A stretch of 64,000 bases of DNA from an archaeon (GTDB lineage Archaea; Micrarchaeota; Micrarchaeia; Norongarragalinales; UBA97), in NCBI GenBank assembly GCA_020057405.1, contig JAGVFW010000003.1:1-64000 (forward strand). The letters run 5' to 3'. Positions 1,229-24,526 of the stretch are shown one piece after another. Positions within the stretch are counted from its first letter, which is position 1; every line of letters begins with the position of its first letter. Below the pieces are notes generated by a model that saw only the letters and a program-made list of their open reading frames with translations, was not told the DNA's origin and ran no database searches. The translations under genes and the position numbers were made by a program.

Positions 1229-2676
1229 GCGGGCGACCACTTGGGCCCGCTTGGCGTATCCTGCAAGAGGACGCCGTGCTCCAAAAGTTCTTCGCGGATT
1301 TTGTCGGCTAGCTTGAAGTCCTTGGCTTTTCGCGCCGCCTCGCGCTGGGCCATCTTTTCTTCAACCCACTTGCGCAGGTCGGCGGGCAGCTTCTTTTCCT
1401 CCATGAGAGGGAAAATGCCCAGGACATGGTCGAAGTGTTCGAGTGCCAAGAGAACTAGCATTGCGCTCTTCTCAGACAAGGAACCAGTGGCAAGAAGCTT
1501 GTTGGTCTCGCTGACGAGTTCGAAGACCACGGCAATGGCTTGCGGAGTGTTAAGGTCGTCAAAAAGGACTGCGTCGAACGCTTTTTCGGCGGCACTGCAG
1601 GCGGTCTGCGCTGCCTTCTCGTCGGTGCCTACCTCGATTTTGGCACTAGTTAGCTTGTAGTCGGGCTTGAGTTTGGCTAGCTCGAGCATTTGGGTGCGGA
1701 AGAGGGCGAGGCGCTTGACTGAACCCTCGGCGGCCTCGAGAGACTCGAAAGTGAAGTTTAGCTGGGTGCGGTAGTGGCCGGCTAAGAGGAGCCACCTGAC
1801 TGCTGCTGGCGAGTGCCCGCGGGCGAGGACGTCGCGCAGGGTGAAGAAGTTGCCGAGGCTCTTGCTCATTTTCCTGCCGTCGACGAGTAAGTGCTCGCAG
1901 TGCGCCCAGTGGAGTGCAAGAGGCTTGCCGCTTGCTCCCTCTGACTGCGCGATTTCGTTTTCGTGGTGCGGGAAGATGAGGTCAACACCGCCAGCGTGCA
2001 GGTCGAAGGGTTGGCCCAGGTATTGCGTGCTCATTGCGCTGCACTCTAAGTGCCAGCCCGGCCGGCCTTTGCCAAAGGGCGAGTCCCAGCCGACTTCCCC
2101 GTCGCCGGCGTCGTGCGCCTTCCAGAGGGCAAAGTCGCTGGCATTGTCTTTATCGTAATTGTCGTTCTCCACGCGTGCCCCAGCCCTTAGCTCGTCCATT
2201 TTGAGGCCCGAGAGCCTGCCATAGTGCTTGAAGCTTTTGACCGAGTAGTAGACGCTGCCATCGGCGGTCTTGTAGGCAACGCCTTTAGCAATCAGGGCGC
2301 GGATTAGCTCAATCATTGCCCCCACGTGCTCGGTTGCCCGCGGAGTGTGGTGCGGCTTTTTGATGCCCAGGCGGGCGAGGTCCTCAAAAAACGCGTGCTC
2401 AAAGCCTTGGGTGAAGTCTTTTAGGGGCACGCCCGCCTTTTGCGCGCCCGCTATTGTCTTGTCGTCGACATCCGTGATGTTCATGACGTGGTTAACGGGG
2501 GTGCCTGAGAGTTCGATGGTGCGGCGCAGGACGTCCTCGAAGACGAAAGTGCGGAAGTTGCCTATGTGGGCGTAGTCGTAGACTGTCGGGCCGCAGGCGT
2601 AGAAGCGCACGGACTTGCCGTCGGCTGCCTTCAGGGGCTTTTTCTTGCGCGAGAGCGTGTCAAAGAGCTGCAGCAT
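1225..2676 (-). CDS. cysS: Cysteine--tRNA ligase
   Basis: CGPTVYDYAHIGN, GRPGWHLECSAM, HHENE and KMSKS motifs. Confidence 0.98.
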   Translation of the reverse strand: MLQLFDTLSRKKKPLKAADGKSVRFYACGPTVYDYAHIGNFRTFVFEDVLRRTIELSGTPVNHVMNITDVDDKTIAGAQKAGVPLKDFTQGFEHAFFEDLARLGIKKPHHTPRATEHVGAMIELIRALIAKGVAYKTADGSVYYSVKSFKHYGRLSGLKMDELRAGARVENDNYDKDNASDFALWKAHDAGDGEVGWDSPFGKGRPGWHLECSAMSTQYLGQPFDLHAGGVDLIFPHHENEIAQSEGASGKPLALHWAHCEHLLVDGRKMSKSLGNFFTLRDVLARGHSPAAVRWLLLAGHYRTQLNFTFESLEAAEGSVKRLALFRTQMLELAKLKPDYKLTSAKIEVGTDEKAAQTACSAAEKAFDAVLFDDLNTPQAIAVVFELVSETNKLLATGSLSEKSAMLVLLALEHFDHVLGIFPLMEEKKLPADLRKWVEEKMAQREAARKAKDFKLADKIREELLEHGVLLQDTPSGPKWSPA

Positions 2677-20796: not shown

Positions 20797-20814
20797 AATC
20801 GTTTTAACCCTCCC

Positions 20815-20841
20815 CCCGCCGTTTTGGCGGGCTCGTTTTTT
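20815..20841 (+). terminator. Hairpin plus T-tract after ftsZ
   Basis: CCCGCC-GTTTT-GGCGGG followed by TTTTTT. Confidence 0.6.
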
Positions 20842-20894
20842 ACAAGAGTTAGCGCGAGCTTTGCTGTTGGAGGCCGGGGGGGGAGTACACGCGC

Positions 20895-21206
20895 CTAGGC
20901 AATTGAAGTGAGCACTACAACTGCAGCGGCAGCGAGAATGAAGTAGAATGCGCCGCTGCCTACCCACCGATAGACGGTTGCGATGTAGTAGACGAAGAGG
21001 ATGAAAAAAATCGGCAGGAGAAGGACGCCCCACCAGGTTCCCATCAGGGCACCGGCGATTGCGATTGGCACGGTAATCAGGCTGGCTGCTGCGACGAAGA
21101 GCGGCTGGGATGCAAAACCCACATCCGGGTTCTGCGCGAAAGTAAGCAGAGCGAGCACGAAGAGCGCAACCACCACCCAGGTGTCAACGCCATCCCAAGA
21201 GAACAT
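20895..21206 (-). CDS. Small integral membrane protein
   Basis: 103 aa with about 4 hydrophobic segments. Confidence 0.7.
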   Translation of the reverse strand: MFSWDGVDTWVVVALFVLALLTFAQNPDVGFASQPLFVAAASLITVPIAIAGALMGTWWGVLLLPIFFILFVYYIATVYRWVGSGAFYFILAAAAVVVLTSIA

Positions 21207-21296
21207 AACTACTCATTAGTAGTGCTTCAGAATAAATTGCTTTGCTTTTTAGTTGCGATACTTTGTTTTTACAATTTTTGAACACTTCGAAATTCG

Positions 21297-21381
21297 AAGC
21301 CGGCCGCCAACGGGAATTACCGACAAAACGCTTCGGCGCCGTAAGCCTAGAGCGCCGGGAGACTGCGCTTTGGACGGCCCT
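21297..21381 (-). ncRNA. Candidate structured RNA motif, copy 2
   Basis: Nested stems GGCCGUC/GGCGGCC, AAAGCGC/GCGUUUU and CGGCGC/GCGCCG; G-U pairs occur on the minus strand. Confidence 0.4.
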
Positions 21382-21464
21382 AATATACACCCACCCCGTT
21401 TTGTCAGAAAATGGACAAACCTAGGGGTAAGAGTTAAATAGCTGGAATGCAATATATTGTTTCC

Positions 21465-21880
21465 TCGAATTTTTGGAATTCGAGTGGTTGCGAGAGACTT
21501 CAGGGCCGTTCGCTTTCTACGGATTGCCTCCTTGGGGTTGCCTTGGACTCTCCGACCACCCTATCTTAAAACCCTTAGCGGGGGCGCTGCTTTCCGGATT
21601 GCCTCAAAGGGGAAAGCACGATTACAAACGCAACTAAACAGCTGCGCCGGTTTTTTCCTCCACCCTACCGCACGGGACTCTTGGGGAAATCCCGGTGGAT
21701 GCATGAAGGACCGCCCACCGCCAAGTCGGGTTTTAGTTTCCGGCTACTCACTATGCTTTGGCCAGTGAAAGGGTCTACTTTTGAAAAGCAATCAAAAAAA
21801 GCGTCATTCCCTTAATGCCTTCATGCGCTTGTAATTCGCAGAAGACATGAAAGGGGCAGGGCTAAAGCTGATGACGCCCG
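21465..21880 (+). ncRNA. Candidate long structured non-coding RNA of unknown family
   Basis: Several long stems whose G-U wobbles favour the + strand, a duplicated GCTTTC(TA)CGGATTGCCTC motif, and a TATA-like GTTAAATA just upstream. Confidence 0.45.
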
Positions 21881-21988
21881 TAATAAGGAGCCACAAGTTT
21901 CGCAAGTCCTGCATTGTAAAAACTTAATCCCCGGCGTTGCTTAAAAAACTATTGTTACCGGGCAGAGTTGGTTGGCGAGGCAAACGGA

Positions 21989-22789
21989 TTAAATCAATTC
22001 CTTCAGCAAAGCAAGGTCGCAGTAGTTTGGGGATGCAAACGCGTCTATTCCTCTTTGTTCTGCGAGTTCTTGAATGAATTGCGCGTATGGTTCTTGGAGC
22101 CGGTAGGCTTTCCAGTTCAGGCATAAAACAGGCTTTCTGCCAGCCTTTGCCCCGCCGGTAACTGCGTCCGCTATTTTCTTCGTCCACTCGACGGTTTTTC
22201 CGGCAGAACCCAGAATGAATCCATCGCAGTCTTCTAAACCCATCAATTCCGCCGCCCGTTCTGGCGTCATGCTCCCGCCGTATATGACTCGCGTTTTCCC
22301 AGCCGTGTCTTCGTCAAACCGCTCGGCTATGGCTTTTCGCAGCAGGGAACAAAAAAACTGGACTTGGGCGGCTTGCGGAGGCGTCACTCCGGCTTTCCCA
22401 CTTCCCCTAGTGCCCCACGCGGGCTCATAACCGACGACTATTTTTTGGAAGTCTTGCCGCGATACGCCGGCTATTTCTTCAAGGAATTTCCGGCAAACAA
22501 GGCCTTGGATTTTTTGTTTTTCCTCGGCTGAAAGGTCTTGCCAGTCTTTCCCCAGTTCGGCCCAGCTCTCCCCGACCAGCAATATGTTGTCAAATAATTC
22601 GTTCGCTATTGCGCTTTTGAGTTTTTTATTTACCGTATCCGAATCATCACCAACTTCGGAATGGCCGATAATAATTCCAGTAGCCCCGGCTTTTTTTACC
22701 TCAAAACAACTCGTGCCGCCGGTTCTGGCAAAAGAATCTCTCCCGTCGCCATCAAAAATAGAAATGTTCTGCGCAATTAGCTTAACCAT
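21989..22789 (-). CDS. tpiA: Triosephosphate isomerase, circularly permuted
   Basis: Starts at KLIAQN (beta3), then IIIGHSE, GYEPAWG, IYGGS, DGFILG, with RKPVLCLNWK (beta1) near the C-terminus. Confidence 0.9.
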   Translation of the reverse strand: MVKLIAQNISIFDGDGRDSFARTGGTSCFEVKKAGATGIIIGHSEVGDDSDTVNKKLKSAIANELFDNILLVGESWAELGKDWQDLSAEEKQKIQGLVCRKFLEEIAGVSRQDFQKIVVGYEPAWGTRGSGKAGVTPPQAAQVQFFCSLLRKAIAERFDEDTAGKTRVIYGGSMTPERAAELMGLEDCDGFILGSAGKTVEWTKKIADAVTGGAKAGRKPVLCLNWKAYRLQEPYAQFIQELAEQRGIDAFASPNYCDLALLKELI

Positions 22790-22836
22790 GACAAAGTTTG
22801 CCCCGGGCAAACTAAAAAAACTTCCTATGGGTGCAG

Positions 22837-23313
22837 TCAGTTCTTTTTCTTGCGGCCTTGCTTTGCGGGCGTGGGCGCTGTTGCCGGCGCGTGGGCGTGA
22901 AGCGCAATCTTGCCGTCGAGGGCGGACTGGAGTGCGTCGCGCAGGCCCTTTAGCGAGGGCCGGTCCATGTGGGCGCGGAAGATGAGGTCGCCGGCCTTGT
23001 TGATGTCGAACTGGATGAATTCGGAATGGAAGTCCCGCGTCTCGTTGTCAAATGACTTGGGGTAGGCCACAGGCGAGAAGGTGAATGCGACTTCCTCGCG
23101 GCCGGGGCTTTTAACGACGCTGCCCATTTGGGGCGGGGTGATGGAAAGCAGATGCAGGCCGAAGGAGACCATGATGTTAAAAGCGATGATTGCGACTAGG
23201 AAGATTGCTAGGGTGTAGTCGCCCGAGTATAGGGTGAGGGCAACTGCAAGGATGCCGGTCCAGACTAGGGCGTTGGCGCCAATGTGCTTTAGGTATCCTG
23301 CATTAAGTTCCAT
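22837..23313 (-). CDS. Hypothetical membrane protein
   Basis: Two N-terminal TM helices; follows the DUF373 gene by 1 nt. Confidence 0.7.
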   Translation of the reverse strand: MELNAGYLKHIGANALVWTGILAVALTLYSGDYTLAIFLVAIIAFNIMVSFGLHLLSITPPQMGSVVKSPGREEVAFTFSPVAYPKSFDNETRDFHSEFIQFDINKAGDLIFRAHMDRPSLKGLRDALQSALDGKIALHAHAPATAPTPAKQGRKKKN

Positions 23314-23314
23314 G

Positions 23315-24526
23315 TTAGTACCTCACGACGACTTTCTCGCCGATGTGCGCGATGTGGTTCAAGTCGAGGTCGATTTTTTGGCCCGACTCGGTTTCGATGA
23401 TGAACGTTTCCTTTCTCTTGTTGATGCCGACGATTTTGCCAAGCAGGCTGCCTAGCTCGGTGTAGACTTCCTTGCCTTCAAGCCTTAAGCCTGCGAGAAT
23501 GTCTTTTCTAAACTCGCGGGCAAGAAAGATGATGAGGAACATCACTGCAACGACTAGGAGGAGGAGGCCGAAGAACTCGCCAAAGCCAGTCGTGCCCAAA
23601 ATCCAGTCGGCTGCGCTTGTGAAGAGGACCCAGAAGAGGATGAGCGCGGACGCGTTTATCAAAAAGCTGGGGTAGAGGTAGTTGCGCCGCTCGTAGTAGG
23701 CCTCAAGCGCGTTGCCAATGATTGTGAGGAGGAGGGCGACGACTAGGAGCACGAGTTCCTTGATGAAGATTGCAGCTTGCTTGAGAAGCTCGGTCTCGCC
23801 GCTTGAGACGACCTTGTTTATGCCGACCCCAATGGCGACGATGGCGAGGGGTACTGCGGCGAAGTAGAACACGCTTGAAATGCGGTCAAAAGAAATCTTC
23901 GTTTCAGTGAAGATGCGGACAATCCAGTCCTCGATGCCGATTGCCTTTAGTATGAGGTAACCGCCCAGCATGCCGACAAAGGCGCGCAGGCCGGTGACGC
24001 CGAAGAGGTAGAAGAGCGCCAGTGCCAAGCCCGGGATGCCAAAGACGATTCTGGCGAAGGCCGGCTCCTTTAGCTTGTCGAGGAGCACGAAGTAAGTCTT
24101 CTCAAGCTCTTTAGTCTGCTTGACGACAACCGTGTGCACGCTGTTGATGCGGATGCGGCTCTGCACGAGGGGGAGAACCTGCTCGTCGCTTGCCCCGTCG
24201 GTAACGAAAACGCACGCCTCTGGCTTGAATTGCTTGAGGACGGCTTCAAGCTGCTTGACGATTTCGCTGTTTGCAGTGTAGCCCAGCCGGGGCGAGCCCG
24301 TCAGGGTCGCGATTTCAACGTCGTGGTCGGCTCCAAGCTCGTCGTATAGCTTGATGCCCTGGAACATGGCGTTGGCGTCAACCTCTGCTGGGTCGGCGAT
24401 GGCTAGCTTTGTCGCCGCCTCGCTAACGGCCTTTCGGCCGACTACGGGACCCTTGACTTTCGCCTTCTCCTGCAAGTCTGCGTCAATGTCGACGACGAGA
24501 ACCAGCAGGCGCTTATGATCTGACAA
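23315..24526 (-). CDS. DUF373-family membrane protein with C-terminal PRC-barrel-like domain
   Basis: LVLVVDIDADL, ADPAEVDAN, VTDGASDE, VVVKQ; TM region; C-terminal LEGKEVYTELGSLLGKI...IAHIGEKVVV. Confidence 0.85.
   Translation of the reverse strand: MSDHKRLLVLVVDIDADLQEKAKVKGPVVGRKAVSEAATKLAIADPAEVDANAMFQGIKLYDELGADHDVEIATLTGSPRLGYTANSEIVKQLEAVLKQFKPEACVFVTDGASDEQVLPLVQSRIRINSVHTVVVKQTKELEKTYFVLLDKLKEPAFARIVFGIPGLALALFYLFGVTGLRAFVGMLGGYLILKAIGIEDWIVRIFTETKISFDRISSVFYFAAVPLAIVAIGVGINKVVSSGETELLKQAAIFIKELVLLVVALLLTIIGNALEAYYERRNYLYPSFLINASALILFWVLFTSAADWILGTTGFGEFFGLLLLVVAVMFLIIFLAREFRKDILAGLRLEGKEVYTELGSLLGKIVGINKRKETFIIETESGQKIDLDLNHIAHIGEKVVVRY

Follow-up and report, generated by a model that had tools for sequence, protein, structure and literature searches.

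The stretch of DNA analysed here, referred to throughout as the window, comprises 64,000 nucleotides of a Micrarchaeota archaeon (order Norongarragalinales; contig JAGVFW010000003.1 of assembly GCA_020057405.1, positions 1 to 64,000 of the forward strand), and its minus strand carries, at 21989..22789, a gene whose product is, judging from its sequence, almost certainly a circularly permuted triosephosphate isomerase (TIM). The gene, an uninterrupted open reading frame (ORF) of 266 codons followed by a TAA stop at 21989-21991, has two in-frame starts, namely a TTG at 22810, which would give a protein of 273 residues, and an ATG at 22789, which gives one of 266. Since the N-termini of the homologues align at the position of the ATG, we take the latter to be the start, while the TTG is probably not used as such; for the same reason, the span proposed for the gene in an earlier note on this DNA is the right one, and the motifs listed there (MVKLIAQN, GHSE, YEPAWG, YGGS, DGFILG, the linker, and RKPVLCLNWK from nucleotide 22138 on) were all found again. 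An identical 266-residue protein (P0001) is held in the protein collection that we searched, and the residue numbers given below refer to this form unless the 273-residue ORF is stated. The features of the locus are as follows.

22813..22820, minus strand: T-rich, TATA-like box TTTTTTTA, 24-31 nucleotides upstream of the ATG, read from the sequence.

22160..22789, minus strand: residues 1-210, the units from beta3-alpha3 to beta8-alpha8, delimited by Pfam model positions 55-243, PDB alignments and predicted strands; they contain ARTG in loop 3 (Thr23), GHSE, YEPAWGTRGSGK (loop 6), YGGS (loop 7) and ILGSAG (loop 8).

22661..22663, minus strand: codon of His43, the equivalent of the catalytic His, invariant in 65 of 65 family members; codon read directly.

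22424..22426, minus strand: codon of Glu122, the equivalent of the catalytic base Glu, likewise invariant in 65 of 65; codon read directly.

22139..22159, minus strand: new linker TGGAKAG, residues 211-217, which connects what used to be the C-terminus (alpha8) with what used to be the N-terminus (beta1), as placed by the alignment and by the gap between both hidden Markov model (HMM) matches.

21992..22138, minus strand: residues 218-266, the beta1-alpha1-beta2-alpha2 module relocated to the C-terminus, as placed by profile matches and predicted strands and helices.

22109..22117, minus strand: codons of Asn225-Trp226-Lys227, with the equivalents of the catalytic Asn and Lys of beta1; Asn225 and Lys227 are invariant in 65 of 65.

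In the numbering of canonical TIM, His43 and Glu122 are presumably His95 and Glu165, respectively. The linker varies in both length and sequence within the permuted family (alignment columns 220-232), and the TTTTTTTA box could possibly be an archaeal promoter belonging to the gene itself.

That the protein belongs to the TIM family PF00121 follows from its score, which is above the gathering cut-off, and from the presence of the catalytic Asn, Lys, His and Glu, all aligned to those of TIMs in the PDB. In particular, the 273-residue ORF scores 102.4 bits against this family (cut-off 20.1; E = 3.7e-29), and it does so in two stretches. It is the order of the units that is unusual: rather than running from 1 to 8, as in canonical TIM, they run from 3 to 8 and then from 1 to 2. 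The best Pfam stretch puts residues 9-215 of the 273-residue ORF on model positions 55-243 of 245, and phmmer, run against PDB sequences, aligns residues 5-204 with residues 62-244 of the bacterial TIM 7rmn and, weakly, residues 225-272 of the 273-residue ORF (RKPVLCLNWK...) with 7rmn 6-57 (RKPIVAANWK...). The 56-residue C-terminal tail alone matched no Pfam family at E <= 10, and its homology was therefore sought with profiles. One such profile, built from 65 full-length family members with identities to the query of 27-53%, matches 7rmn 67-267 through its positions 5-217 (124.5 bits) and, through its positions 214-263, both 7rmn 6-58 (12.2 bits) and 1b9b 3-55 (17.4 bits, independent E 0.022). 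When the 65-row alignment was cut in two and an HMM was made from each part, every small, full-length family member showed the N-part followed by the C-part, while, reciprocally, canonical TIMs showing both parts had the C-part at residues ~2-55 and the N-part behind it. What is more, an HMM of beta1-alpha2 built from 83 canonical TIMs alone found the tail behind the main match in 59 of the 65 members at a per-sequence E < 0.01 (median 13.2 bits; the six that were missed had E values from 0.012 to 1.0), as compared with 8 of 325 shuffled tails. Finally, in the genome of one relative (G008), PF00121 positions 1-59 lie directly downstream of positions 53-242, on the same strand and in the same gene. 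In other words, there are two homologous segments in swapped order, within one chain and conserved across species, as is characteristic of a natural permutant of a (beta/alpha)8 barrel. The earlier note had looked to Pfam for two such matches in swapped order, of which the one to model positions 55-243 was obtained and the one for the tail alone was not, the swapped pair being recovered by the family profile and in the relative; its claim that the last ~50 residues align to beta1-alpha2 of TIM is, on the other hand, borne out by the family profile, the pair of N- and C-part HMMs and the canonical-only HMM alike.

The predicted structure agrees with this picture. The AlphaFold2 model, computed from the 65-row alignment, has a mean predicted local distance difference test score (pLDDT) of 94.5 and a predicted TM-score of 0.92, and it exhibits eight beta/alpha units, with strands at residues 3-6, 38-41, 69-72, 118-121, 168-171, 190-193, 221-225 and 249-253 and a helix after each of them. 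The last two strands belong to the tail, together with helices 235-244 and 256-265, such that the relocated module makes up two of the eight strands. Only residues 130-132 have a pLDDT below 50, and they are part of loop 6, the segment that acts as a mobile lid in TIM. In a Foldseek search against the PDB, the best matches listed were all TIMs (best E 3.8e-13, 197-219 aligned columns, TM-score ~0.6), the modest TM-score being as expected because a sequential aligner superposes six of the eight units. Taken at face value, the model implies that the chain would close into a regular (beta/alpha)8 barrel.

Would such a barrel also assemble as TIM does? A homodimer model scored 0.87, the best of three controls scoring 0.00, with runs agreeing in 100% of contacts and a pLDDT of at least 92; among proteins of solved structure, 20 of the 30 solved as pairs pass the mark set for this score, as does 1 of the 23 solved as single chains. 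The passing of this mark may reflect a memory of solved TIM dimers and is to be read as showing likeness and not binding. In canonical TIM dimers, a threonine of loop 3 docks at the active site of the partner, and in the model Thr23 of one copy contacts Lys227, His43, Asn225 and Glu45 of the other. As Thr23 touches all four, the Asn and Lys of the C-terminal tail would sit with the His and Glu of beta4, which is where the earlier note had the lysine of the NWK motif, i.e. inside the active site, with Asn225 and Lys227 beside His43 and Glu45. Probably, then, the protein is a homodimer with loop 3 docking at the partner's active site, and the model suggests that the lengthened loop 3 of the partner reaches over that site.

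The same permutation recurs well beyond this archaeon. A word-indexed protein search returned 87 proteins, the top 60 of which are permuted (204-281 residues, E <= 1e-34, and 34-53% identity to the query if the self-match P0001 is set apart); query coverage is 86% or more for 58 of these 60 and 84% and 74% for the shorter fragments P0045 and P0057, and the remaining 27 proteins are canonical TIMs with a coverage of 63-83%. The top 60 originate from NCBI, JGI, ENA and Logan assemblies, and those that carry a name are annotated as triose-phosphate isomerase and assigned to Portnoybacteria, Paceibacterota, Patescibacteria or Aenigmarchaeota. Among 50% cluster representatives, an exhaustive search yielded 5314 matches, seven of them with E <= 1e-30, and a permuted TIM turned up at 25 loci when one genome per species was scanned with a pattern. 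The labels of these loci include, on the bacterial side, Saccharibacteria (9), Patescibacteria group (4), Paceibacterota, Roizman-, Kerfeld-, Beckwith-, Peregrini- and Peribacteria, and, on the archaeal side, Aenigmatarchaeota (2), Woesearchaeota and 'archaeon' (3), the Beckwithbacteria-labelled carrier (G001) being a complete chromosome of 1.05 Mb. Two carrier metagenome-assembled genomes (MAGs; loci L010 and L027) bear the labels Methanosarcinales (2.0 Mb) and Gammaproteobacteria (0.9 Mb). The permuted TIMs that they encode fall among sequences of DPANN archaea and of bacteria of the candidate phyla radiation (CPR), so that the labels or the bins may be wrong. Ten residues are invariant in all 65 aligned sequences, namely A21, T23, H43, E45, E122, P123, G171, G194, N225 and K227, which comprise the catalytic residues, the tip of loop 3 and the glycines of loops 7 and 8. 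As far as can be told from these sequences, the permuted TIMs form a small conserved family, patchily distributed over tiny-genome CPR bacteria and DPANN archaea. The search for the same permutation elsewhere, which the earlier note had proposed as a check, thus brought up ~60 proteins and 25 species genomes.

This recurrence also bears on the question of whether the architecture could be an artefact, be it a misassembly, a broken tandem duplication or a truncated TIM with an unrelated C-terminal extension. Such an explanation would be in keeping with the lack of a Pfam match for the tail alone and with the fact that no public reads or contigs over the ORF were found: among public sequencing runs, two DNA runs and no RNA run matched (shares 0.08 and 0.06), their contigs being confined to 21754-21904 and 22889-22923, outside the ORF. 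Yet the same architecture and length are seen in the ~60 proteins from the four assembly sources and in the 25 species genomes, including the complete chromosome, the ORF is uninterrupted, and the tail is homologous to beta1-alpha2 of TIM by three profile tests and supplies two of eight strands to a model of high pLDDT (94.5), so that we hold an artefact to be most improbable. Because the same order occurs in many independent assemblies, a check of the junction with reads becomes unnecessary. The barrel order 3-4-5-6-7-8-1-2, with four catalytic residues in a single ORF, as put forward in the earlier note, is backed by the profiles, AlphaFold, the dimer model and a family of the same order.

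The most common enzyme fold takes its name from TIM, a diffusion-limited enzyme that serves as a standard model in studies of catalysis, folding and protein design. A natural permuted TIM provides a direct comparison in nature, and it does so in several phylum-level lineages, usually beside the unpermuted enzyme. It raises the questions of whether the order of the chain affects folding and the dynamics of loop 6, of how permutations arise, given that tandem TIM-TIM and fused forms are found in the same data, and of why extremely reduced genomes keep two TIMs. There is a practical side to this as well. Namely, annotation pipelines label the permuted proteins plain triose-phosphate isomerase, with Pfam spanning only three quarters of them, and metabolic reconstructions of CPR bacteria and DPANN archaea consequently cannot tell the two forms of TIM apart.

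Permuted barrels as such are not new, circular permutants of TIM barrels having been both engineered and designed. Jia et al. 1996 reportedly described transaldolase B as a natural circular permutation with respect to class I aldolases. GH70 glucansucrases, when compared with GH13 (PMC11046441), are another natural barrel permutation, and their chain, like that of the permuted TIM, starts close to unit 3 and has units 1-2(-3) at its end. In both cases, as here, the barrel and its catalytic motifs are kept and the motifs are reordered along the chain, but these are other enzyme families, whereas the permuted TIM is the namesake of the fold and coexists with its own unpermuted form. Designed permuted TIM barrels, such as sTIM11 and the DeNovoTIM series (PMC13105402, PMC8250049), show that the fold tolerates moved termini, but they are artificial and idealised, unrelated in sequence and cut at another site; passages from these two reviews of TIM-barrel evolution and design mention designed permutants only. 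A search of full-text literature, whose coverage excludes most subscription journals, found no description of a natural permuted TIM, which is consistent with the earlier note, without proving absence from print. According to the main text of Jaffe et al. 2020 (PMC7304191), TIM is essentially universal in CPR, with an archaeal-like subclade in Microgenomates, Katanobacteria and Peregrinibacteria; the stem 'permut' is absent from that main text, and the supplementary TIM trees might hold permuted sequences unremarked. A further study lists TIM as a core enzyme (PMC8406219). The permuted family is thus apparently undescribed, natural permutations of other barrels being already known.

What, then, does the protein do? 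The reading that we favour, and to which we would give about an even chance, is that of a second, horizontally acquired isoenzyme for dihydroxyacetone phosphate (DHAP) and glyceraldehyde 3-phosphate (GAP), working alongside an archaeal-type TIM that the genome also encodes. The latter came to light as a second PF00121 match (model positions 1-243) in the source assembly, which comprises 1.22 Mb in 17 contigs and is 90.6% complete. It is encoded on contig C4 (C4:46038-46682; L001, ORF 1480-2373, minus strand), has 227 residues and 118 bits, is of archaeal type, and carries the motifs VNHSEHR and YEPPKLIGSG. It shares with the permuted protein the Pfam family and the presumed reaction, but differs from it in its canonical order and archaeal motifs, and a very long branch of the tree lies between them; of the two genes, the archaeal-type one seems native and the permuted one acquired. 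The motifs of the permuted TIM are indeed bacterial-type, as stated in the earlier note, and the archaeal-type enzyme is a separate gene.

In mechanistic terms, the chain runs from beta3 to alpha8, through a short new linker, and on into beta1-alpha1-beta2-alpha2. The barrel would close as usual, with the new termini between alpha2 and beta3 facing away from the active site, and a TIM-type active site would form, with the tail contributing Asn225 and Lys227, beta4 contributing His43 and Glu45, and beta6 contributing Glu122. In the homodimer, the loop-3 threonine of one chain would dock beside the Asn, Lys and His of the other, and the reaction would be a proton-transfer isomerisation of the TIM type, DHAP <-> glyceraldehyde 3-phosphate. 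The permuted protein is ~30% identical to bacterial-type TpiA (PF00121; 7rmn, 1b9b) over beta3-alpha8 and has in common with it the catalytic Asn, Lys, His and Glu, the YGGS of loop 7, the AxTG tip of loop 3 and the predicted loop-3 homodimer, whereas the beta1-alpha2 module is C-terminal here and N-terminal in TpiA. After GHSE, a 4-residue deletion sets the permuted family apart from canonical TIM and has removed the two arginines, so that the loss of the HSERR arginines remarked on in the earlier note holds for the family.

We favour DHAP and GAP as substrates on three grounds. First, the catalytic set and YGGS are intact, and phosphoglycerate kinase (PGK) and TIM are the only recurrent metabolic neighbours: a PGK gene lies directly downstream of the permuted TIM in L011, L013 and L016, and a canonical TIM gene lies directly upstream of it, in tandem, in G012, G013, G014 and G017 (not in G005). 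That said, a Pfam search of 30 neighbours gave a mixed list (PGK, HIT, RecJ, HAD twice, OMPdecase/HUMPS twice, PfkB, PFOR-beta, UDG, methyltransferases and others), and gene context offers weak functional hints. Second, sister permuted domains, described below, are fused to glycolytic enzymes. Third, in 4 of the 26 carriers the permuted gene was the only TIM found (G002, G004 and G010, with archaeal labels, and G008), although this could reflect incompleteness of the MAGs, and in five others the canonical copy looks the odder of the two. In particular, the canonical copies of Saccharibacteria type (G005, G012, G013, G014, G017) have an odd loop 6, AIGK(T/E/R)(E/D), with GR or GH in loop 8 in all five and YGAS in loop 7 in three (G012-G014), and in the one of G012 the catalytic His is replaced by Leu. 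The working copy of TIM may therefore differ between lineages. The odd gene itself, labelled Saccharibacteria, lies at L029 759-1532 (plus strand), with equivalents in G005, G013, G014 and G017.

Several observations, however, weigh against an ordinary isoenzyme. To begin with, there is redundancy. When the 25 other carrier genomes were searched for a canonical TIM with PF00121 and, in doubtful cases, also with NF003302, a canonical-order enzyme was found in 21 of them, making 22 of 26 together with the source genome; the permuted TIM is, in other words, mostly an extra paralogue, in carriers that all measure 0.7-2.0 Mb and in which, at such a size, a redundant isoenzyme is unexpected. The accompanying enzyme is bacterial-type in 16 genomes and archaeal-type in five (G001, G015, G016, G023, G024), and at least ten of the aligned canonical-order copies have normal catalytic and phosphate-loop motifs. 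Then there are the loops. The phosphate grippers of TIM are loop 6 (AIGTG), loop 7 (YGGS) and loop 8 (GG), and the Ile of loop 6 clamps and packs on the catalytic Glu; the corresponding loops of the window protein read WGTRGSG, YGGS and GS. Across the permuted family, five residues that include a conserved G-D are inserted in loop 3 relative to TpiA, Arg22 takes the place of the Phe, Tyr or His of canonical TIMs, loop 6 reads WG(S/T)RGSG(R/K)DD.PPP in place of WAIGTGK, being longer and with Ser/Thr for Ile, loop 8 reads LGSA in place of VGGA, and loop 7 is YGGR in many members, the window protein keeping YGGS. Conserved changes thus run across the substrate-gripping loops of a protein that is redundant in most carriers. 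In addition, the interface of the dimer model includes loop 6 (127-131) and loop 8 (194-195), neither of which is known to lie in the subunit interface of canonical TIM, and the protein falls far short of the NCBIfam equivalog cut-offs (TIGR00419, 56.5 against 130.6 bits; NF000722, 64.6 against 293 bits; archaeal NF003302, 23.1 against 132 bits). Finally, when the ORFs of the 26 loci were compared all against all, no neighbour was common to more than four loci.

An enzyme with the permuted TIM fold and TIM chemistry but with another substrate, for instance a different or more negatively charged phosphosugar, would explain why the permuted gene is kept beside a canonical one in so many small genomes, and would sit well with the tandem arrangement of the two in four of them, with the conserved, family-specific alterations of loops 3, 6, 7 and 8 (Arg being the new residue in several of them), with the modelled placement of loops 6 and 8 in the interface, with the low equivalog scores and with a patchy, accessory-like distribution. 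Against it speak the retention of all catalytic residues and of the YGGS and GxG phosphate-binding elements, the lack of a conserved neighbour from another pathway among the loci, the five carriers with odd canonical loops, and the glycolytic fusions. In view of the conserved loop changes and of the coexistence in very small genomes, a changed substrate or a changed regulation stays a serious rival to the DHAP/GAP isoenzyme, with a chance that we place clearly below even and yet far from negligible. By comparison, a catalytically dead or regulatory TIM-like protein, such as a partner subunit or a binding protein, strikes us as improbable. Redundancy with canonical TIM in most genomes and the loss of the hydrophobic Ile of loop 6 would be compatible with it, but the invariance of Asn, Lys, His and both Glu in 65 sequences at 27-53% identity is hard to explain without catalysis.

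As to the archaeal-type canonical TIMs, three of them occur in genomes labelled CPR, namely in G001 (L028 717-1361, minus strand, 193.6 bits to NF003302), G015 and G024, in agreement with the archaeal-like CPR subclade noted in the main text of PMC7304191.

Permuted TIM domains are also found in much larger proteins. In the exhaustive search, proteins of 758-4398 residues match across the permuted junction, and the two of them with a source name (P0093, P0234) are labelled Omnitrophota/Omnitrophica. Both the pair of HMMs derived from the family and the pair derived from canonical TIMs find beta3-8 followed by beta1-2, with no beta1-2 before, in P0095, P0100, P0104, P0105, P0106, P0109, P0155, P0181 (4030 residues), P0193 (4398 residues), P0234 (3069 residues) and P0239 (4240 residues). 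Their fusion partners, according to Pfam, are PGK (P0104, P0181), PFK and PGM (P0181), PPDK (P0193, P0234), class II aldolase (P0105, P0234), enolase (P0106, P0234), FBPase_3 (P0155), ROK (P0109), GHMP kinase (P0100) and a GatZ-like domain (P0095). These giant proteins chain several glycolytic or gluconeogenic enzymes, the permuted TIM included, and a literature search on glycolytic fusion proteins of Omnitrophota found nothing relevant. The fused TIM domains are closer to canonical TIM, with 146-204 bits to Pfam as opposed to 102 for the window protein, and, unlike the CPR/DPANN family, they keep the HSExR arginine, the Ile of loop 6 and the GG of loop 8 and have no insertion in loop 3; most of them do share with that family an insertion in loop 6, WAI(K/G)GSG. 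Tandem duplicates are the classical intermediate of permutation by duplication and deletion, and two tandem TIM-TIM proteins are present in the data: P0099 (640 residues) reads beta1-2, beta3-8, beta1-2, beta3-8, and the partial P0093 (1189 residues) reads beta3-8 (partial), beta1-2, beta3-8, beta1-2, followed by PGM domains. Both are candidates for intermediates in the permutation of TIM.

A quick maximum-likelihood tree of beta3-alpha8 (123 rows, 211 columns, no bootstraps, 58 of 120 inner branches open) puts 70 canonical rows on one side of a branch with an SH-like approximate likelihood ratio (SH-aLRT) support of 93. The CPR/DPANN permuted clade holds 38 rows (SH-aLRT 99) on a long stem (length 0.81), and a separate clade of 11 rows (SH-aLRT 98) consists of ten rows from fusion proteins and the stand-alone permuted P0098. 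The permuted groups form an unresolved base beside a single, very long archaeal outgroup branch, and a single origin of the permutation is neither shown nor contradicted by this tree. Members with archaeal labels are scattered among the CPR members in at least two places, and this scatter points to repeated transfer of the permuted gene between CPR bacteria and archaea. Viral contigs gave three pattern matches, none of which codes a relative of the permuted TIM, and hence no sign of a phage vehicle.

One may attempt to bring these strands together in one account, which we regard as tentative and, in its entirety, rather unlikely, i.e. that of a functionally distinct paralogue with a shared lid, with an origin in giant fusion proteins and a later exchange between CPR bacteria and DPANN archaea. 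Here, the long loop 3 of one subunit and the long, Arg-bearing loop 6 of the other would form a lid shared between the two, giving rise to a new substrate or a new regulation. The permutation would have arisen by duplication and deletion in tandem or fused TIM domains of giant, Omnitrophota-labelled glycolytic proteins, and the stand-alone gene, once released, would have been repeatedly exchanged between CPR bacteria and DPANN archaea.

Returning to the window and to the acquisition that forms part of the isoenzyme reading, we searched 60 related genomes (1 of the same genus, 5 of the family and 54 of the order; completeness 61-97%) and found the permuted TIM in none of them at E <= 1e-10, genomes of this order measuring 0.4-1.6 Mb. 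In one genome of the same family (G027), the genes for LonB, FtsZ, a 158-residue membrane protein and DUF373 stand in the same order, without a TIM in the slot, and between FtsZ and the membrane-protein gene there are ~2.4 kb of other DNA with two small ORFs. What is more, the permuted gene has a GC content of 0.503 and a GC content at third codon positions (GC3) of 0.511, whereas the GC3 of seven neighbours ranges from 0.645 to 0.757. Given that none of the 60 relatives carries the gene, that the slot holds other DNA in the relative and that GC3 deviates, the permuted TIM was probably acquired by this archaeon recently and horizontally. The slot from FtsZ to the 158-residue gene is itself variable (window 20797-22836 as compared with L055 3900-6358, with adjacent ORFs of 84 and 124 residues).

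The neighbours in the window are FtsZ, archaeal LonB, DUF373, Band 7, NUDIX and SpoIIM-like genes, none of them metabolic. The LonB and DUF373 genes, together with the archaeal-type TIM and the genome sizes of the order, mark the source as an archaeon with a small genome. The predicted membrane protein of 158 residues (22837-23313, minus strand) belongs to no Pfam family, and its gene is tightly coupled to that of DUF373 (23315-24526, minus strand); the pair is kept in related genomes, with 38% and 66% identity in the same-family genome. No tRNA genes were found in the window. Downstream of the permuted TIM gene, positions 21219-21988 form an ORF-poor region of 770 bp with a GC content of 0.49. 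Rfam gave no match in the window at the gathering score, none in 20900-22100 at E <= 1 and none in L055 at E <= 0.1, and the region may harbour an undescribed small RNA. A 74-nucleotide piece of it (~21482-21552) has an 82% identical counterpart in the equivalent ORF-poor stretch of a genome from the same family (L055 4203-4276), and positions 21754-21904 recur, with two differences, in a freshwater metagenome contig.

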